Part shown: one piece after another, positions 1,483 through 43,747 of the stretch
Position numbering within the stretch: the stretch's first letter is position 1
How the letters are laid out: every line of letters begins with the position of its first letter
From: Betaproteobacteria bacterium
GTDB taxonomy: Bacteria > Pseudomonadota > Gammaproteobacteria > Burkholderiales > SG8-41
Direction: 5' to 3'
Assembly: GCA_029864385.1 (NCBI GenBank)
Contig: JAOTTL010000001.1
Coordinates: forward strand, 101 to 64,100
DNA: 64,000 nt
Translations under genes and position numbers: made by a program
The notes under the pieces: generated by a model
Databases searched by the model: none
The model's input: only the letters and a program-made list of their open reading frames with translations
Told to the model about the DNA's origin: nothing

Positions 1483-3228
1483 ATGGATTTGATGAAAAGC
1501 GAAACGCGCGATGGCATGCGCATCGACTGGGATGCGCCGATCCCGATGGATGACGGCGTCGTGCTGCGCGCCGACGTCTTCCGCCCGCTGGGTGAGGGCA
1601 AGGTACCGGTGATCATCAGTTACGGGCCGTACGCGAAGGGACTGGCGTTCCAGGAGGGCTTCAAAAGCGCCTGGGTGCGCATGACGACGAGTTATCCCGA
1701 GACGGCAGAAGGCTCCTCCAATAAATATCAGAACTGGGAGCTCGTCGATCCGGAGAAATGGGTGCCCTGGGGCTACGCCTGCGTGCGCGTCGATTCGCGC
1801 GGCGTCGGCCGCTCGCCCGGCTTTCTTGATCCGCTCTCGCCGCGTGAGGCGCAGGACTTCTACCACTGCGTCGAATGGGCCGGCACGCAGCCGTGGAGCA
1901 ACGGCAAGGTCGGGATCAGTGGCATCTCCTATTACGCGCAGACGGGCTGGCTCGTGGGCCCGCTGCGTCCGCCCCACCTTGCGGCATTGTGCGCGTGGGA
2001 GGGGGAGTGCGATTACTACCGCGAGTGGTCGCGTCACGGGGGCATCCTGTGCGGCTTCGCCGAGAGCTGGTACCGGCGCCAGGTGGTGAGCGTGCAGCAC
2101 GGCGTCGGCGAGCGCGGCCCGCGCAGCCGCGTCACCGGCGAGCCGGTGGCGGGACCCGAAACGCTGCCGGAAGAAGAGCTTCGCAAGAACCGGGTCGATC
2201 ACGCCGGCGATTTGCTCCGCCACCCGCTGATCGACGACTACTATCGCCCGCGCCTGCCGGCGCTGGAGAAGATGACCGCGCCACTGCTCTCCGCGGCGAA
2301 CTGGGGCGGGCAGGGGCTGCATCCGCGCGGCAACTACGAAGGCTGGCTGCGCGCCGGCAGCAAGCAGAAATGGCTGGAAGTGCACGGCGACACCCACTTC
2401 TCGCACTTCTACACCCACTACGGGCAGGGGCTGCAAAAAAAGTTCTTCGACTATTTTCTCAAAGGCGAAAAGAACGGCTGGGACAAGCAGCCGCGCGTCT
2501 CGCTCAACATCCGCCATCCCGGTGAGAAATTCGCGCCGCGCGGCGAGAACGAGTGGCCGCTTGCGCGCACGCAGTGGACGAAGTACTACCTCCACGCGGA
2601 TGGCCATGGCCTCTCGACCAGGAAGCCCGAGGGCGAGACGACGATCGTCTACGAGACGAGCGGTGACGGCGTGACGTTCCTCACCGCGCCCTTGAAGGAG
2701 GAGATCGAGATTACCGGCCCGGTGGCCGCGAAGCTTCGGGTGTCCTCGGACACGACCGATGCCGACCTCTTTCTCGTGCTGCGCGTGTTCGACCCGGCCG
2801 GCAAGGAGCTCGTCTTTCTCGGCTCCAACGACCCGCGCACGCCGATCGGCCTGGGCTGGCTTCGCGCCTCGCACCGCAAGCTCGATCCGGAAAAGACGCT
2901 GCCCTACCGGCCCTATCACACGCACGACGAAGAGCAGCCGCTCACACCCGGCGTAGCGGTGGAGCTCGACGTCGAGATCTGGCCGACCTGCATCGTGGTG
3001 CCCCCGGGCTACCGCATCGGCCTCTCCGTGCGCGGCAAGGACTACGAATTCGACGGCCCGCCCATGGAGATTCCGCACGCGCCGTATCCGATGCGCGGCG
3101 TTGGCCCCTTCACGCACCAGCATCCCGAGGATCGTCCGCCGGCGATTTTCGGGGGCAAGAACACGCTGCATTTCGGCGGGGGCGACAAGGCGCCGCATGT
3201 GCTGCTGCCCGTTATTCCCAAGGCGTGA
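1483..3228 (+). CDS. CocE/NonD family hydrolase (S15 X-Pro dipeptidyl-peptidase-like)
   Basis: 581-aa ORF with nucleophile elbow GISGISYYAQTGW (GxSYxG) and a long C-terminal beta-sandwich-like region. The TGA stop (3226-3228) lies inside the first GTGATGG repeat unit. Confidence 0.8.
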   Translation: MDLMKSETRDGMRIDWDAPIPMDDGVVLRADVFRPLGEGKVPVIISYGPYAKGLAFQEGFKSAWVRMTTSYPETAEGSSNKYQNWELVDPEKWVPWGYACVRVDSRGVGRSPGFLDPLSPREAQDFYHCVEWAGTQPWSNGKVGISGISYYAQTGWLVGPLRPPHLAALCAWEGECDYYREWSRHGGILCGFAESWYRRQVVSVQHGVGERGPRSRVTGEPVAGPETLPEEELRKNRVDHAGDLLRHPLIDDYYRPRLPALEKMTAPLLSAANWGGQGLHPRGNYEGWLRAGSKQKWLEVHGDTHFSHFYTHYGQGLQKKFFDYFLKGEKNGWDKQPRVSLNIRHPGEKFAPRGENEWPLARTQWTKYYLHADGHGLSTRKPEGETTIVYETSGDGVTFLTAPLKEEIEITGPVAAKLRVSSDTTDADLFLVLRVFDPAGKELVFLGSNDPRTPIGLGWLRASHRKLDPEKTLPYRPYHTHDEEQPLTPGVAVELDVEIWPTCIVVPPGYRIGLSVRGKDYEFDGPPMEIPHAPYPMRGVGPFTHQHPEDRPPAIFGGKNTLHFGGGDKAPHVLLPVIPKA

Positions 3229-3322
3229 TGGGTGATGGGTGATGAGTGACGGGTGACGCGTTAGGCTAGGGTAGAATCAACTTGAGCCGTTCACCGTTCA
3301 CCGTTCACCGGTCACGAATCAC
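3225..3322. repeat. mosaic intergenic element (GTGATGG/GTGACGG left, CCGTTCA x3 and GTCACGAATCAC right)
   Basis: Tandem 7-nt units are read directly from the sequence. Confidence 0.8.
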
Positions 3323-3365
3323 AAGAAGTTGGGCGTTTGGCTGCGGCTAATTGATCCTCGCGGTT

Positions 3366-4226
3366 ATGGATACGGAATTCTGGGTCATACAGGTCTTCAA
3401 CGGGATTTCGTACGGCGCGCTGCTGTTCCTGCTGGCGGGCGGGCTCTCGCTCATCTTCGGCGTCATGCGCATCGTCAATCTTTCGCATGGCTCGTACTTC
3501 ATGCTGGGCGGCTATGTCGCGCTGACGGTGATCTGGACGACGGATTCGTGGGTGCTCGCCATTCCCGTGGCTGCACTGACGATCGCCGTGGTGGGCCTGA
3601 TCATGGAGCGGGTGTTCCTGCGGCCGCTGGGATTCGATCCTCTGCGGCAGGTGCTGCTGACGGTCGGCTTCGCGTTCCTGTTCCAGCAGGGTGCGCTCGA
3701 CATCTGGGGCGGAGACAACCTCGACATCTCGCCGCCCGACATATTGAAGGTGAGCGTGGTGTTGGCAGGGATCTACTTCCCGCTGTACCGCGTGTTCATG
3801 ATCGGCGTGGCCGTGGCGATCGGTGTAACGATCTGGCTCACCATGGAAAAGACGCGCATGGGCGCGATGGTGCGCGCCGCGGTGGATGATTCCGAGATGG
3901 CGCGCGGCGTCGGCGTCGACACCTCGCGCGTGTCGATGTTCATCTTCGCCTTGGGCGCATTCCTCGCCGCGCTGGGAGGCGTGATCGGAGGCGCGTTTCT
4001 GGGCGTCTACCCGGGGCTGGATTTCGAGATCCTGCCGATCGCGTTTGCCGTGGTGATCATCGGCGGCATGGGCAGTCTCGGCGGCGCCGCTGTGGGCAGC
4101 CTCATCGTCGGGCTGGCCGACAACTTTGGCAAAGCGCTCTTTCCGGAGATCTCCTACTTCACTCTGTACGCCCCGATGGTGCTGATCCTGGCGCTGAAAC
4201 CGACGGGCCTGTTTGGGCGCGAGTGA
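3366..4226 (+). CDS. branched-chain amino acid ABC transporter permease (LivH-like)
   Basis: Polytopic ORF in track 3351..4226. ATG at 3366 (MDTEFWVIQVFNGISYGALLFLLAGGLSLIFGVM) is a typical LivH N-terminus. First gene of a 5-gene liv-type cluster. Confidence 0.85.
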   Translation: MDTEFWVIQVFNGISYGALLFLLAGGLSLIFGVMRIVNLSHGSYFMLGGYVALTVIWTTDSWVLAIPVAALTIAVVGLIMERVFLRPLGFDPLRQVLLTVGFAFLFQQGALDIWGGDNLDISPPDILKVSVVLAGIYFPLYRVFMIGVAVAIGVTIWLTMEKTRMGAMVRAAVDDSEMARGVGVDTSRVSMFIFALGAFLAALGGVIGGAFLGVYPGLDFEILPIAFAVVIIGGMGSLGGAAVGSLIVGLADNFGKALFPEISYFTLYAPMVLILALKPTGLFGRE

Positions 4227-4236
4227 GGCGGCTGCC

Positions 4237-5226
4237 ATGAGCGAGAGAGGCAAGATCGTCATCGTCATCGCGGTGTTGGCCGCTCTGCTGGTCGCGACGC
4301 CGTTCGCAAACTCGTTCGTGGTCCTCCTGGTCACGCAGGCGCTGGTGTTCGCCATTCTTGCGATGAGCCTGGATATCCTGCTCGGCTTTACGGGACTGCC
4401 GTCGCTGGGTCAGGCCGCCTACCTGGGCGTGGGTGCGTACCTCACGGCGATCCTCGCGAGCCAGTACGAGTTCGGGCTGGGCTCGAGCTTCTGGGTCGTC
4501 ATCGTGCTCGGCTTCGTGATCGGCGCCGTCACCGCGGCTTTCTTCGGGCTGTTCGCAATCCGCGCGACGGGAGTCTATTTTCTCATGATCACGCTCGCGC
4601 TCGGCCAGTGCGTGTGGGGGCTCGCGTATCGCTGGAACTTGCTCACGGGCGGCGACAACGGGATCAACATGCCCGGCCGTCCCGAATTCGGAATCGATCT
4701 CGCGGACGACTTGACCTTTTTCTATTTGGTGTTCGGTTTTTTCGTGGCGTCGCTGGCGATCCTCTACCTGTTGGTAAAATCTCCCTTCGGGCGCAGCCTG
4801 GTCGGAATCCGCGAGAGCGAGCTGCGCATGCGCATCCTTGGCTACAACACGTGGCTGCACAAGTACATCGCGTTCATCATCGCCGGCGGCTTCGGCGGGC
4901 TCGCGGGCGTGCTGTGGGCGTTCCTGAACGGGCTGGTGAGTCCCGAGGACGTCATCCTGACCACCTCGGTCGACGCGCTGCTCATGGTGGTTCTCGGCGG
5001 GCCGGGCACGCTCGTCGGCGCGGCGATCGGCGCGGGCGTGGTGGTCTTTCTGCGCGAGTATCTCAGCACGCTGGTGTCGTGGTGGCAGTACGCGCTGGGC
5101 GGCGTTTACGTGCTGACGATCCTGTATCTCCCGGGCGGCCTGATGGGCATTCCGGAGCGAATTCGCCAGCGCCGCGCGCCGTCGGCGGCCGCTGAGGGAG
5201 CAAAAGTAGTTTCCGCGTCTCAATAG
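4237..5226 (+). CDS. branched-chain amino acid ABC transporter permease (LivM-like)
   Basis: ORF 4213..5226. ATG at 4237 preceded by GAGG. LivM-like membrane protein (LDILLGFTGLPSLGQAAYLGVGAY) starting a few nt after the LivH-like stop. Confidence 0.85.
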   Translation: MSERGKIVIVIAVLAALLVATPFANSFVVLLVTQALVFAILAMSLDILLGFTGLPSLGQAAYLGVGAYLTAILASQYEFGLGSSFWVVIVLGFVIGAVTAAFFGLFAIRATGVYFLMITLALGQCVWGLAYRWNLLTGGDNGINMPGRPEFGIDLADDLTFFYLVFGFFVASLAILYLLVKSPFGRSLVGIRESELRMRILGYNTWLHKYIAFIIAGGFGGLAGVLWAFLNGLVSPEDVILTTSVDALLMVVLGGPGTLVGAAIGAGVVVFLREYLSTLVSWWQYALGGVYVLTILYLPGGLMGIPERIRQRRAPSAAAEGAKVVSASQ

Positions 5227-5246
5227 TAACGAAAGGAGGGGCTGTT

Positions 5247-6515
5247 ATGTTACGCAAACTCAAAACGGGGCTTACTTGGTGGATCCCGCTGGGCGTCGCC
5301 GCGCTCGGCATCGGCTTGGCCTCTGGGCCGGCCGGCGCCGCGGAGGAACTTCGCATCGGGTTCGTCGCGCCGATGACGGGGATCTTCGCCCAGATCGGCA
5401 AGGACATGAGCAACGGATTCCAGATGTACGTGGACGAGGTCGGCGGTAATTTCGCCGGCGCCAAGGTGAAGTTCATTCTTGAAGACGGCCAGGGCAAGCC
5501 GCCGATCAACGTCCGCAAGGCTGAAAAGCTCGTCCGCCAGGACAACGTGCAGATGTTCATCGGCGGGCTGCTCGCCTCGACCGGCTACGCGTTGGCGCCC
5601 GTGAGCACGCGGCTGAAGACGGTCTACATTCCTTCCATCGCGGCGGCGGACGATCTCACGCAGCGCGAGGCGTCCAAGTATCCGTACGTGGTGCGCACCG
5701 GCTGGACCAGTTCCCAGCCCAATCACCCGTTCGGTGCGTGGGCCTGCGAGCAGGGCTACAAGAAGGTCGTGACGGTTGGCGCCGACTACGCTTTCGGCTA
5801 CGAGGTCATCGGCGGATTCCAGAAGACCTTCGAGGACTGCGGGGGCAAGGTCATCCAGAAGATCTGGCCGCCGCTGGGAACGAAGGACTTCGGACCGTTC
5901 ATCCCAACCATCAAGGATGACGCTGACGCAATCTTCACGCTCATGGTTGGGCCGATGTCGCTGCAGTTCCCGAAGCAGCTCGCCGCCGCAGGGATTAAGA
6001 AGCCGGTGCTGGGCGGGGGAACGAGCTACGACGAGTTCGTGCTGCCGTCGATGGGGGACGAAGTGATAGGCCACGTCTCGGCGCTGCAGTACAGCGCGGC
6101 GCTCGACACTCCGAGGAACGCGGCGTTCGTGAAGAAGTACCGCGAGAAATACGGCAAGGTGCCGTCGTACTACTCGGAGAGCAACTACACCACTGCGCAG
6201 ATGATCCACGAGGTCATGAAGAAGACGGGCGGCAAGTGGCCGGGCGCGGAGAAGTTCGTCGAGCTGCTCGCGAGCGTCCAGCTCGACAGCGTGCGCGGCC
6301 CGGTGCGCCTGGACGAGATGCGCAACCCGGTGCACAACATCTACATCCGCAAGGTCGAGAAGAAGAAGATGCACGGCTACGGCGAGGACGAGCTCTGGAA
6401 CACGGTCATCAAGACCTACCCCAACGTGAGCCAGTTCTGGACGTACAAGAAGGCCGACTTCCTCAAGCAGCCGGTCTATAGCCGCACGTTCCCGCCGTGT
6501 AAGTACTGCGAGTAA
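5247..6515 (+). CDS. ABC transporter substrate-binding protein (LivK/type I periplasmic binding protein family)
   Basis: 422-aa ORF with strong RBS AAAGGAGGGG. Signal peptide (LTWWIPLGVAALGIGLASGPAGA), then LRIGFVAPMTGIFAQIGKD, typical of Leu/Ile/Val-binding family proteins. Confidence 0.85.
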   Translation: MLRKLKTGLTWWIPLGVAALGIGLASGPAGAAEELRIGFVAPMTGIFAQIGKDMSNGFQMYVDEVGGNFAGAKVKFILEDGQGKPPINVRKAEKLVRQDNVQMFIGGLLASTGYALAPVSTRLKTVYIPSIAAADDLTQREASKYPYVVRTGWTSSQPNHPFGAWACEQGYKKVVTVGADYAFGYEVIGGFQKTFEDCGGKVIQKIWPPLGTKDFGPFIPTIKDDADAIFTLMVGPMSLQFPKQLAAAGIKKPVLGGGTSYDEFVLPSMGDEVIGHVSALQYSAALDTPRNAAFVKKYREKYGKVPSYYSESNYTTAQMIHEVMKKTGGKWPGAEKFVELLASVQLDSVRGPVRLDEMRNPVHNIYIRKVEKKKMHGYGEDELWNTVIKTYPNVSQFWTYKKADFLKQPVYSRTFPPCKYCE

Positions 6516-6590
6516 CGCGTTCTCGGCTGCCGGGCGACGCCGCCATTCTTGATGCGCGGCGTCCGCCCGCTTGATTGTTAAAGAGCGTGG

Positions 6591-6800
6591 CTAGTGACTG
6601 GTGACTAGTGCTGAAGAAGTGACGGGTGACGGGTGATGCGTGACGGGGCCTAACCCTGGTGATGGGTGATGGGTGATGGGTGATGGGTGATGCGTAACTG
6701 CTCTTGATTCTTGCTGTTCTTGGCGTCTTGGCGGTTCAATGTTGGAGCTTATCGGCGTATATCGGCGTCCATCGGCGGCTAATTCTGGTCCTGGATTTTT
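6591..6800. repeat. large mosaic element inside the liv cluster (GTGACTGGTGACTAGTG module, GTGACGG x2, GTGATGG x5, CTTGGCG module)
   Basis: Modules recur at 13901-14179, 29840-29876 and 47172-47196 (the last in inverted orientation). Confidence 0.85.
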
Positions 6801-6811
6801 GGGGTGGTACA

Positions 6812-7588
6812 TTGAACTCAAGCGTGACCAAGCCGCAACCTGACGCACAGCCGGTGCTGGAGCTGCGGAGCCTGTCGAAGAGCTTCGGCGGCCTTCATGC
6901 AGTGCAGAATGTGAGCCTCAAAGTCTTTCCGGGCGACCGCAAGGCCATCATCGGGCCGAACGGCGCGGGGAAGACGACGCTGTTCAACGTCATCACGGGC
7001 ACCCTGCCGGCAACGTCGGGGCAGGCCGTGCTCTTCGGAGCGGACGTGACCAACTGGCCGAGCCACCGGCGCACTGCCATGGGCATGGCGCGGACGTTCC
7101 AGGTCACGAATCTGTTTCCGAAGCTCACGGTGCTCGACAATATCCTGCTCGCGATCCAGGGCGTGCGCGCCATGAAGTTCGTGCTGTGGCGCCCGCTCTC
7201 CTCCTACCGGGACGTGCACGAGAAGGCGCGCGGCCTGCTGGAAGGCGCCGGCTACTGGGACCGCCGCGACGTGGAGGTGCGCAACCTTTCTCACGGCGAG
7301 CAGCGCCAGATCGAGATCGTGCTGGGGCTCGCGAGCGACCCGAAGATCCTGCTCCTCGACGAGCCCGCAGCGGGGCTAGCCTCGGGCGAGTCGCGCGAGA
7401 TGGCGACCTTCCTGAAGCGCCTCGACCCGACGCTCGCCATCCTGCTCATCGAGCACGACATGGACGTCGTCTTCGACGTGGTCGATCACATCTCGGTGCT
7501 GCACTTCGGCGAGGTGGTGGAGGAGGGCCCGACCGACGCGGTCCGCCGCAGCGCCAAGGTGCAGGAAATCTACCTCGGGACGGGCTAA
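6812..7588 (+). CDS. ABC transporter ATP-binding protein (LivG-like)
   Basis: Walker A GPNGAGKTT, signature LSHGEQRQ, Walker B LLLDEPAAG. The track ORF starts at 6704 but its first ~36 codons read through intergenic repeats. TTG 6812 (or GTG 6824) follows a GGGGTGG Shine-Dalgarno-like site. Confidence 0.8.
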   Translation: MNSSVTKPQPDAQPVLELRSLSKSFGGLHAVQNVSLKVFPGDRKAIIGPNGAGKTTLFNVITGTLPATSGQAVLFGADVTNWPSHRRTAMGMARTFQVTNLFPKLTVLDNILLAIQGVRAMKFVLWRPLSSYRDVHEKARGLLEGAGYWDRRDVEVRNLSHGEQRQIEIVLGLASDPKILLLDEPAAGLASGESREMATFLKRLDPTLAILLIEHDMDVVFDVVDHISVLHFGEVVEEGPTDAVRRSAKVQEIYLGTG

Positions 7589-17526: not shown

Positions 17527-17585
17527 CACGGAACGGTGAACGGTGAACGGACTGGAACTTCCGTAAATCGTGAATCGTGAATCGG
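17527..17585 (+). repeat. heptamer arrays GGTGAAC x2 and CGTGAAT x2
   Basis: Read directly, downstream of the VOC gene. Confidence 0.75.
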
Positions 17586-17696
17586 AAAGTTGCACGTTTG
17601 AGATCGCAAATTGCGACCTCAAACGTGCCGCCTTCGAAGCATTCAGTTGAAATGCGAAATCGACCCATCGCGGTTATTCGAGCAACCAGCACCGCC

Positions 17697-17721
17697 AAAC
17701 AAAAACCCCGCCGAAGCGGGG
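17697..17721 (-). terminator. rho-independent terminator downstream of the Cys/His-rich small gene
   Basis: Minus strand CCCCGC-TTCG-GCGGGG followed by TTTTTGTTT. Confidence 0.7.
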
Positions 17722-17761
17722 TGTGTAGTTCGCAGTAAAATTTACGCCAGCATACTTCAGG

Positions 17762-18040
17762 TCAACGCGGAGCGTTTTCTTGATTTCTCCCATCGCTCGT
17801 CCTGGTTCGACGCAGTCCTAATGAATGGGCCAATTGGTCGAGCCGAGAAGAGGGCTTGCGGGCAATCCCGATTTGCTCCGATTTGATGTAGGCACGCTCT
17901 CGCATTGTCTCCCAAGCAATGTCTTGGTATAGAGCATCGTAAATACCGCGCTGCATCGTTCCGCACCGATTACACTTTCTGTAGGCAAGAACAGACGTAA
18001 CATTAATTGTCCACTGATGTGTGAATAGACAGCGCCTCAT
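17762..18040 (-). CDS. hypothetical Cys/His-rich (zinc-ribbon-like) protein; paralog of the N-terminal module of the PilZ protein at 42998
   Basis: MRRCLFTHQW...CNRCGTMQRG...WETMRER...LDQ..H..GLRRTRTSD aligns along its whole length with residues 1-95 of ORF 42995..43747. ATG 18040 after AGGGGAA. A rho-independent terminator lies about 40 nt downstream. Confidence 0.55.
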   Translation of the reverse strand: MRRCLFTHQWTINVTSVLAYRKCNRCGTMQRGIYDALYQDIAWETMRERAYIKSEQIGIARKPSSRLDQLAHSLGLRRTRTSDGRNQENAPR

Positions 18041-18365
18041 CAATTTCCCCTGAACGCATCGACGCAATCTTGAAATTCTATAATCGCTGCTCGCCTCCGG
18101 GAATGATCAATCTCTCCTATCCCCGGTAGAAGGAATCTACCTTTTTTTGCGGCATCTTGGATCCTCCGTCCGGTTTCGACCCTAAGGAACATTCAAGCTT
18201 TTCTACAACCTCAACGCAGGGCTAAACGGTGCGCTGCTGCGGCGCGTCCGGTTGAGCGCCCTGTGGGGCACTCAGTTCTTTAGGTAGATGCCATATGGCA
18301 CGCCAAAAACTGGCGATGCATCGCCGAAAAATTCAAATTTAGTAGTTCATTTATGTAGTTACGCC

Positions 18366-42368: not shown

Positions 42369-42503
42369 TCACTTCTTAAACTTTACCCTGCGCCACTCCC
42401 ACGGGGGTATAGGGGCATCATCTACCCATAGTCCCCACTTCCGCAATCGCGCTTTCTGTTCCGCAGACTCGTAGTGCCCCCGATATTCCTCCGGCATGGA
42501 CAT
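42369..42503 (-). pseudogene. thermonuclease (SNase-like) C-terminal fragment
   Basis: The 44-codon ORF MSMPEEYRGHYESAEQKARLRKWGLWVDDAPIPPWEWRRVKFKK matches the conserved C-terminal ...A..ArkkklGLW....P.PPWeWR of staphylococcal-nuclease homologs. No N-terminal domain is present. Confidence 0.35.
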
Positions 42504-42726: not shown

Positions 42727-42790
42727 GCTTCGTGGCGCGGCGGAGGAGAAACGCCATTTAATCAAAGCCTCAATCAGCCGTAACTACACA

Positions 42791-42811
42791 CCCTGCTGCG
42801 GCGGGGTTTTT
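42791..42811 (+). terminator. rho-independent terminator-like hairpin, sequence-related to 17697..17721
   Basis: CCCTGC-TGCG-GCGGGG followed by TTTTTGTTTG. It shares the preceding AACTACACACCC with the minus-strand copy at 17722-17733. Confidence 0.6.
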
Positions 42812-42997
42812 GTTTGTGGGGACGCGTCCAGGCACGGTAGGCTGCGAGGGCAAGCAGGGTGGCGAGGATGCCGGTCGTCGGGATATGCCGCCAAGAAAAG
42901 GGGATTTCTTCTACCTGGGATGGGAGAAATTGATCCTTCCGGGGGGCGATGAACGAGCATAGACTTTGAGCATTGCGTTGATGCGTTCAGGGGGGTG

Positions 42998-43747
42998 ATG
43001 ATGAATTGTCTATTCACGCATAAGTGGGTTTTGGGGAAGGCAATTAACGTCACGTCTCATGTTAGGGCTACTCTTCGGTACAGAATATGTAAACGGTGCG
43101 GAACGATGCAGCGTGGTTTGGATACTTTTGAAGGAGACATTTCTTGGGAGACCATGAGAGAGCGCAGCTACCATAGGGCGCAGCAAATCCAGATCGTTCG
43201 GCAACCCTCGTCTCCGCTCGACCAATGGACCCATACAATAGGACTGCGTCGAACGAGGATGAGCGATAAGCGGGATCAAGAAACCACTCCGCGCCGATCC
43301 AATGTTAGCCGGCTTGAATCTGACCGCGAACAACACACCCCGTTTCGGCGAACTTGGGCTGGGGCAAACTTAACGGATCAGCTTGAAGGGCCGAAAGTGA
43401 CAGGAAGACTAGCAGAAAGAAGACGAAACAAGCGGATCGATGTCGCGCTGCCGGTGATCCTAGAAAACGCCACTGGCGTCACGCGTGACGTGAGCGCCTC
43501 GGGGGTGTTCTTTTGGAAGAGCGGCACGTTTATATACGGGGAGTCGATCAGCTTTTCGATGAAACGAAAAACCGAATCGGGCAAGTTCATGCTGAAATGC
43601 CGTGGAGTTGTCGCCCGCACGGAGCCGCGTGGTAACGACGTTGGTGTGGCGGTGAGAATCACCAAAACAGCGATGGAGCCTATAAATGACGTTATGGCAT
43701 ACGCAGAAGAGGTATCGGATATTCGTCCTGGAGGAGGTGCTGCATAA
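42998..43747 (+). CDS. PilZ domain protein with N-terminal Cys/His-rich (zinc-ribbon-like) module
   Basis: PilZ c-di-GMP motifs RRNKR (RxxxR) and DVSASG (D/NxSxxG). The N-terminal 95 aa are paralogous to ORF 17762..18040. Start ATG 42998 (GTG 42995 in the track). Confidence 0.7.
   Translation: MMNCLFTHKWVLGKAINVTSHVRATLRYRICKRCGTMQRGLDTFEGDISWETMRERSYHRAQQIQIVRQPSSPLDQWTHTIGLRRTRMSDKRDQETTPRRSNVSRLESDREQHTPFRRTWAGANLTDQLEGPKVTGRLAERRRNKRIDVALPVILENATGVTRDVSASGVFFWKSGTFIYGESISFSMKRKTESGKFMLKCRGVVARTEPRGNDVGVAVRITKTAMEPINDVMAYAEEVSDIRPGGGAA

Follow-up and report, generated by a model that had tools for sequence, protein, structure and literature searches.

The window analyzed here is a 64,000-nucleotide (nt) stretch of contig JAOTTL010000001.1 from a Betaproteobacteria bacterium. 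It carries two copies, which we call W1 and W2, of a gene module encoding a Cys/His-rich, zinc-ribbon-like protein segment of about 95 amino acids (aa). Each copy is preceded by a conserved leader, and one of them is joined to a PilZ domain. A six-frame profile scan found just these two module copies in the window. The genes concerned are the following.

17762-18040, minus strand: W1, small zinc-ribbon-like protein standing alone, 92 aa
43001-43747, plus strand: W2, an in-frame fusion of the zinc-ribbon module and a PilZ domain
43397-43744, plus strand: PilZ part of W2, with homology to the ~96-aa genes that encode PilZ separately in other cassettes

W1 contains, in this order, the motifs CxxxH...CxxC, WETMRER and GLRRTRxSD. 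The initial annotation had described W1 and the first ~95 residues of W2 as paralogous; the two share 62-65% identity, and every protein motif quoted at that time was found again. The W2 reading frame is open from 42995 to 43747 on the plus strand, and its most likely start is ATG 43001, which we prefer because the predicted N-terminus, MNCLF, fits the family consensus M-x-C-L-F and because 5 nt are then left after the GGGGGG Shine-Dalgarno site. In the source annotation, W2 appears only as a PilZ protein of 162 aa that begins at the internal Met88 (P0090), and the zinc-ribbon module is missed. At the DNA level, alignment showed that homology between the two copies runs from ~18155 to ~17690 on the minus strand and from 42878 to ~43350 on the plus strand, and thus takes in, besides the coding region, ~112 nt on its 5' side and ~60 nt on its 3' side, the latter with a GC hairpin. 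This 3' hairpin, which the earlier inspection had missed, is part of the duplicated unit. Both copies do lie in AT-richer DNA, as had been noticed, with stretches of ~50-53% GC between flanks of 60-70% GC.

The reported fusion of one module copy to PilZ was borne out by a match of W2 residues 140-230 to PF07238 (29.4 bits against a cut-off of 22.5, E=1e-6). PilZ domains bind cyclic diguanylate (c-di-GMP) through RxxxR and (D/N)xSxxG motifs. W2 has RRRNKR in the place of the first and DVSASG (DxSxxG) in the place of the second, and c-di-GMP binding is predicted. When the W2 PilZ part was used as a tblastn query, many of the loci examined proved to have a ~96-aa PilZ open reading frame (ORF) directly 3' of the module gene, for example in L001, L002 (twice), L003, L010, L012, L018, L020, L022, L028, L034 and L043. 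The gap between the two genes is ~65-90 nt in most of these loci and holds a hairpin without a U tract; in L028 only a few bases separate them. A true terminator with the same hairpin sequence stands 3' of the PilZ gene. In W2, a GTG at 43397, preceded by GAAGGG, occupies the position where the separate PilZ genes have their ATG. As read from sequence, a cassette begins with a terminator and the leader; the zinc-ribbon gene, a hairpin lacking a U tract, the PilZ gene (~96 aa) and a terminator follow in this order. In-frame fusions like W2 are also present in L046 (223 aa), P0056 and P0049, showing that the W2 fusion is conserved and not an accident of assembly. Gene fusion is a classic signature of functional partners.

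The hairpins that delimit the two window cassettes, or have been left within them, are listed below.

17695-17724, minus strand: W1 intrinsic terminator, ACCCCGCTTCGGCGGGGT then TTTTTGTTTGG
18312-18325, minus strand: terminator-like hairpin and T run upstream of the W1 cassette
42788-42817, plus strand: orphan cassette terminator hairpin with its T run, at the 5' boundary of the W2 cassette
43326-43360, plus strand: decayed hairpin relic in W2, now a translated linker (..REQHTPFRRTWA..), recognized by alignment with intergenic module-PilZ hairpins

A GC-rich hairpin followed by a T run, as in intrinsic terminators, was found at 17722-17705 (minus) and at 42790-42807 (plus). The T run is absent both from the W2 linker relic and from the module-PilZ hairpins of other loci. 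The W1 terminator is a hybrid, its left flank being of the module-PilZ intergenic type and its right flank, with the T run, of the post-PilZ type. Such flanks are expected after deletion of PilZ between two repeats, and W1 appears to have lost its PilZ gene by recombination between two similar hairpins. No PilZ remnant was found downstream of W1 by tblastn. The hairpin at 18312-18325 would shield the W1 leader from read-through. By eye, the flanking hairpins show no GTTRRRY or RYYYAAC core sites, and we rejected integron attC sites as an explanation for them.

The same PilZ subfamily also occurs with another N-terminal partner. P0098, P0104 and P0111 (L055 2501-3079) are 192-aa proteins in which it is fused to a ribbon-helix-helix-like N-terminus, matched by Pfam RHH_5 below threshold (E ~0.02). 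By analogy alone, this architecture hints at nucleic-acid binding by the zinc-ribbon module as well. Inspection by eye of the L055 region upstream of that gene revealed neither the conserved block described below nor any likeness to the leader.

Two observations were made on the surroundings of the cassettes. In L050 (2338-2411) and L052 (631-704), a tRNA-Ala gene with the unusual anticodon AGC sits in the place of the zinc-ribbon gene, between a class-B-like leader start (see below) and the hairpin and PilZ gene. Genes for diguanylate cyclases (PAS-GGDEF, MASE1-GGDEF) share a stretch with cassettes in L053/L054 (128-1225) and L040 (1-1062), directly upstream of the cassette in the former and ~5 kb off in the latter, which fits a c-di-GMP context.

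The module itself defines a very rare family of small proteins. Among 5.8 billion proteins, 37 relatives were found, all from metagenome sources; none of the 37 has an NCBI or UniRef source and none carries a Pfam domain. In a profile search, 55 of 1.84 billion cluster representatives matched. Genome and metagenome scans, of which the productive genome-scale one used search patterns built from a 6-sequence alignment, yielded 38 loci, the four genomic ones being metagenome-assembled genomes (MAGs) of Betaproteobacteria. About 45 further non-identical cassette copies are present in Betaproteobacteria MAGs and metagenomes, often in tandem, with 2-4 tandem copies on many contigs. Residues C4, H8, C23 and C26, a putative metal site, are invariant or nearly so in the 22-39 sequences compared, and so are the WETxRER and GLRRxRxxD motifs across the family. 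The ~95-aa module has no match in Pfam, NCBIfam or PADLOC, and neither W1 nor W2 matches the PADLOC anti-phage defence models at E<=0.1. A sequence-profile search of the PDB with the module returned nothing significant, and PHROGs gave only weak, non-significant matches to the N-terminus (E 0.004-0.02). Foldseek found no match at E<0.5, an uninformative result given that the AlphaFold model used was of low confidence (pLDDT 61). Family ORFs are small and may go unannotated in deposited genomes.

Comparison of 37 non-redundant family coding regions gave high ratios of nonsynonymous (dN) to synonymous (dS) substitution, 0.2-0.8. The same synonymous codon is retained at most positions, and insertions and deletions are concentrated between the two metal knuckles. 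A subset of copies has a 24-residue internal duplication of the WETxxER segment. Several loci carry arrays. L015/L016 (2469-5326) has three intact tandem copies and a pseudogene remnant; L039 (1292-2423) has three copies, one of them truncated, with a Rap1a-like gene and an integrase fragment nearby; in the L046/L047 array (1841-7329) at least three small ORFs are family members, and in L046 a Rap1a-like gene is again close. Two modules are fused head to tail in L031/L032.

Upstream of the module gene lies the leader; the form present in the window we refer to as class A. Its parts in the window are as follows.

18042-18153, minus strand: W1 class A leader core, ~112 nt, non-coding (nhmmer E=4e-32)
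42887-42994, plus strand: W2 class A leader core (nhmmer E=7e-31)
42808-42886, plus strand: distal 5' extension of the W2 leader, common to L013, L014 and L022 and missing from W1
18125-18141, minus strand: inverted repeat GGTAG-N7-CTACC at the 5' edge of the W1 leader core, partly conserved
18047-18068, minus strand: 22-nt conserved block ATTGCGTCGATGCGTTCAGGGG of W1, whose last four bases are the Shine-Dalgarno site
42972-42993, plus strand: 22-nt conserved block ATTGCGTTGATGCGTTCAGGGG of W2

The initial annotation had claimed that the region upstream of both copies is conserved, that it contains a shared sequence block and that it does not encode protein. We found ~112 nt of homologous, non-coding sequence. 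The 22-nt block within it, ATTGCGTYGATGCGTTCAGGGG, has exactly two occurrences in the window, where none would be expected by chance. The 2-nt length difference described just before the ATG is present in the alignment of W1 with W2. In nine aligned cassettes, counted by hand, the distance from the block to the conserved coding TGTCTA is 21, 22, 23, 24 or 25 nt; since these steps are not multiples of three, there is no common frame and the block is non-coding. Nor do the homologous cassettes have a conserved in-frame upstream extension.

The leader is not confined to two recent duplicates, as homologues from other organisms retain it. A profile of the ~112-nt core matches upstream of family genes in L013, L014, L015, L022, L031, L039, L012 and L038. 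Across the window and 49 loci, the class A core was found solely directly upstream of family genes and in the same orientation every time; one of the genes that it precedes is a truncated pseudogene (L031). The proximal block is present in 17 non-redundant cassettes. In W2, L013, L014 and L022 the homology extends ~95 nt beyond the core, up to a copy of the cassette terminator, beyond which these four have nothing in common. The leader core directly adjoins the preceding terminator in L039b and L012. Because the leader is bounded upstream by a terminator in both window copies, the promoter of the cassette must lie within it.

Short upstream ORFs (uORFs) within the leader, which could encode a regulatory peptide, were considered at this point. 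Three candidates came into question: one starting at ATG 18155 in W1, MPQKKVDSFYRG; a second reading TTG-ATC-ATT-CCC-GGA-GGC...TAG (MIIPGGE..) and preceded by AGGAG; and a third at an out-of-frame ATG within the block. By eye, several class A leaders retain a 10-12-codon frame ending at the TAG of ATAGAAT, and changes between CCC and CCG and among GGA, GGG and GGC look synonymous. However, the region of the first ATG is missing in L039b and L012, and W2 and L014 have no stop there. The second frame is broken in L012, L038 and L039b and absent from class B, and only 3 nt separate AGGAG from TTG. The third ATG is replaced by ACG, TTG or CTG in several cassettes and lacks a Shine-Dalgarno site. 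Were transcription to start at the block, moreover, the first two candidates would not be transcribed at all. We regard a regulatory peptide as exceedingly improbable.

The proximal part of the leader resembles a core promoter followed by a short 5' untranslated region (UTR), with the following predicted hexamers.

18075-18080, minus strand: predicted -10-like hexamer TAGAAT of W1
42960-42965, plus strand: predicted -10-like hexamer TAGACT of W2

The 17 non-redundant cassettes have in common the hexamer [T/G]A[G/A]AAT, 6 nt, a conserved A, TTGCGTYGATGCG (TTGCGTYGATGCGYTCAG), a GGGG Shine-Dalgarno site and AATTGATSATG. The hexamer occurs as TAGAAT, TAGACT, TAAAAT or GAAAAT, always 6 nt before the conserved A, and has an A at position 2 and a T at position 6 in a fixed place, as sigma-70 -10 elements do. 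From this pattern of conservation we infer a transcription start (+1) at 18068 in W1 and at 42972 in W2, the first base of the 22-nt block in each case. The predicted 5' UTR would be ~30 nt long and would end in the Shine-Dalgarno site. Sigma-54, extracytoplasmic-function (ECF), MerR-type and FNR/CRP readings of the class A leader were examined by eye and rejected, as their spacings or half-sites do not fit. The sites singled out in the leader are the TAGAAT hexamer and TGCGTCGATGCG.

In L024 the block forms a perfect DNA palindrome, TGCGTCGACGCA. Judged from this sequence, it is only a possibility that the block serves as a dyad for a dimeric binding protein. As RNA, the block could form a mini-hairpin, UGCG-UCGA-UGCG, which we rejected since the change of its second base from G to A is uncompensated in L014, L019 and both L039 copies.

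Comparison of leaders among close relatives revealed a modular structure. The contigs L022 and L017, which come from one and the same metagenome, are nearly identical in their coding regions (dN 0.04, dS 0.11) and unrelated upstream of the -10 box, with a clean recombination breakpoint at the core promoter. The distal part of L022, in turn, matches the W2 one with 86% identity across 206 nt. This pattern shows the leader to be a mosaic, made up of a proximal core and a distal module that can be exchanged. Conservation reaches 75-170 nt upstream of the -10, and at least five unrelated leader types exist among the family cassettes. Class B comprises the leaders of L017, L021, L027, L034, L002 and L043, which are ~200 nt long and conserved; about 190 nt upstream of the ATG they carry a conserved dyad, TGTGA-N6-TCAC(G/A), that resembles a CRP-family site.

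A structured cis-regulatory RNA, be it a riboswitch, an attenuator or a thermosensor, perhaps responsive to c-di-GMP or metal, might be expected of a long conserved non-coding region upstream of a c-di-GMP-linked gene, and the initial annotation had raised this idea. Our folding analyses did not uphold it. RNAalifold gave the alignment of 11 core leaders a consensus energy of -3.7 kcal/mol, which lies at the level of column shuffles (z=0.0). Values of z=-0.04 were obtained for the 5' UTR with the early coding region of 17 cassettes and of z=-0.8 for the alignment of class B leaders. In single-sequence folds z ranged from -1.1 to +1.0, and the minimum-energy folds differed between homologues. 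Four long-form leaders folded at -38.7 kcal/mol with z=-1.6, and 17 of 300 shuffles were as good. The long form does show a 9-bp long-range helix that pairs GGACGCGTC with the block and has compensatory changes in a few pairs, but its distal partner is missing from W1, L039b and L012. A further hairpin, CCGGGGAT...ATTCCCGG, with an apparent compensatory change between W1 and W2, was discarded because it is broken in L013 and L031c.

Searches against known RNA families were in line with these results. Rfam at gathering thresholds had no match in the whole window. At E<=5, only terminator-level matches (17700-17792) were obtained between 17650 and 18400, and none between 42700 and 43400, with c-di-GMP-I and c-di-GMP-II among the families searched. 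The leader is not, then, any known riboswitch, which agrees with the earlier view. We found no conserved uORF and no terminator between leader and ATG, as a leader-peptide attenuator would have, and no conserved helix that sequesters the Shine-Dalgarno site. Finally, the distal half of the leader has been exchanged between near-identical genes, a change that would be incompatible with one folded aptamer. A structured regulatory RNA is therefore, in our judgment, highly improbable.

We also considered a divergent or antisense small RNA within the distal leader. On the plus strand of W1, a TATAAT at 18079-18084 stands back-to-back with the TAGAAT of the sense strand and is followed by ~57 nt of C/U-rich sequence and then by a terminator-like hairpin (18125-18141) with T7; by eye, the C/U-rich stretch is complementary to Shine-Dalgarno-like sequences. 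This arrangement is not conserved, however. The hairpin with its U run is found only in W1 and L014 and not in W2, L013, L022, L039b or others, and a G-U pair of the sense stem in L013, L022 and L031c would be an A-C mismatch in the antisense. L039b and L012 have no A run, and there the preceding terminator abuts the hairpin. The alignment fold of the antisense strand of the core gave z=+0.5. These data make such an RNA very unlikely.

The explanation toward which we lean, without great confidence, is that the leader represents the core promoter and short 5' UTR of the cassette together with an exchangeable upstream control module. It would act mainly at the DNA level. A proximal core, holding the -10-like hexamer, six bases and an A taken as +1, is common to cassettes whose upstream parts are otherwise unrelated. 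The distal class A module, ~75 nt in W1 and ~150 nt in W2, is swapped by recombination with its breakpoint at the -10 box. Since it lacks a recognisable -35 element, the core promoter would need help, and the distal module would provide sites for an activator or repressor. The quasi-palindromic block at +1 to +16 may act as an operator or, within the 5' UTR, be recognised as a linear site; a protein-binding site, the other option raised in the initial annotation, is plausible. W2 is a version of the cassette with its two genes fused in frame, and W1 a version that appears to have lost the PilZ gene via hairpin-hairpin recombination.

Several observations weigh against this explanation, or limit its force. 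A consensus scan calls no sigma-70-type promoter in either region, and TTCCCG or TTCCGG is found at the position where a TTGACA-like -35 would be expected, 16-18 nt upstream of the -10; with no promoter match, the predicted transcription start is drawn from the conservation pattern only. No protein is known to bind the leader, and any binding site is putative. The 11-17 sequences available for the folding analyses are fairly similar, which limits the power to detect covariation. L005-L011, the closest protein relatives of W1 (75% identical), carry a wholly different leader, which means that class A is not essential to the gene; that leader does have a perfect TGATTATAAT at a similar distance from its ATG, which speaks for the promoter reading. 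The rates of evolution speak for constraint, with caveats. Pairwise means for class A were ~0.34 substitutions per site (K) in the leader, ~0.66 for dS and ~0.27 for dN; the leader thus changes at about half the rate of synonymous sites and is about as constrained as nonsynonymous ones. The comparison is biased because class A is defined by leader similarity. For W1 and W2 alone the excess is modest (K 0.27 against dS 0.47, over ~90 codons only), synonymous sites are unsaturated across the whole family, and, given the mosaic structure, high leader identity, such as the 88% that W2 and L022 share, may come from recent exchange and not from selection.

These last points bear on the alternative that the conservation is passive, with young duplicates exchanging segments by recombination or gene conversion and the leader holding a minimal promoter and no specific element. 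In its favor, identity between W1 and W2 is 0.74 at third codon positions and 0.71-0.77 in the leader; synonymous sites are far from saturated, a single codon dominating at most consensus-residue positions; mosaicism is demonstrated, and other family members have unrelated leaders. On the other hand, the pair-averaged K of the leader is about half of dS, the conserved blocks (the hexamer, the +1 block and GGAGAGATTGATCATTCC) are discrete and have variable stretches between them, and the proximal core is retained where distal parts have been replaced. We consider passive conservation unlikely, and retain the reading of the leader as a core promoter and 5' UTR with an exchangeable control module.

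A more far-reaching proposal is that the zinc-ribbon module, rich in Cys, His and Arg, is a new nucleic-acid-binding output domain which works with the PilZ c-di-GMP sensor, encoded in the same operon or fused to it, and recognises the +1 block of its own cassette, either as a DNA operator or in the 5' UTR, making the cassette a self-contained, autoregulated, c-di-GMP-responsive switch. We hold this to be quite unlikely on present sequence evidence. If true, the fast-diverging tandem copies with their swappable upstream modules would constitute a family of switches in one uncultured lineage of Betaproteobacteria.

Some features close to the two cassettes were recorded in passing. In the gap that separates the W1 terminator from the end of a convergent glyoxalase-like gene there is a near-perfect 29-nt palindrome, GTTTGAGGTCGCAATTTGCGATCTCAAAC (17596-17624), next to short tandem heptamer repeats (GATTCAC.., CCGTTCA..) at ~17530-17585. 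In the AT-richer stretch adjoining W2, a 44-aa ORF at 42369-42503 on the minus strand (..KARLRKWGLWVDDAPIPPWEWRR..) looks like a C-terminal fragment of a thermonuclease-like protein; it has no match in Pfam.

Taken on its own, the leader most likely represents a promoter and 5' UTR of the ordinary kind, if unusually well preserved, and we would not list it among riboswitch candidates. The pairing of zinc ribbon and PilZ is the more novel part. To our knowledge, the partners of stand-alone PilZ proteins are mostly unknown, and a conserved operon and fusion partner therefore offers a testable lead to a c-di-GMP output in an uncultured lineage. With their tandem arrays, high dN/dS and swapping of promoter modules, these cassettes are also a tidy example of how signalling modules evolve in cassette style. 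Our literature search for PilZ, zinc ribbons and domain architectures returned nothing on such a combination.

Compared with known systems, the leader is like an ordinary promoter and 5' UTR in its fixed distance from the -10 to a purine, its short UTR, the terminator upstream and the exchangeable upstream part, but differs in having no -35, in conservation that reaches unusually far upstream and in the strong conservation of the initial transcribed sequence. With the c-di-GMP-I and c-di-GMP-II riboswitches it shares being non-coding, conserved and upstream of a c-di-GMP-linked gene; unlike them, it has no Rfam match, conserved fold or expression platform, and it is swappable. The module recalls the zinc-ribbon proteins of phages in phrog_2670 (CxxxGHxW...CxRCG), to which five of six family members match weakly over the N-terminal ~30 residues (E 0.004-0.02). 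These matches are non-significant and cover the metal knuckles only, whereas the C-terminal half of the module, with WETMRER and GLRRSRMSD, has no counterpart. The PilZ protein CdbS of Myxococcus xanthus is functionally tied to CdbA, a ribbon-helix-helix DNA-binding protein (PMC10313047, PMC7156744). Like the PilZ receptors that act via a partner, YcgR-type fusions and CdbS among them, the cassettes described here carry PilZ either as a separate or as a fused domain, with intact motifs in W2. In contrast to those systems, the partner is a ~95-aa Cys/His-rich module without a Pfam, NCBIfam, PADLOC or PDB match, c-di-GMP binding and the interaction are predicted, and the cassettes are multi-copy, tandem and fast-evolving, with a dN/dS of 0.2-0.8.

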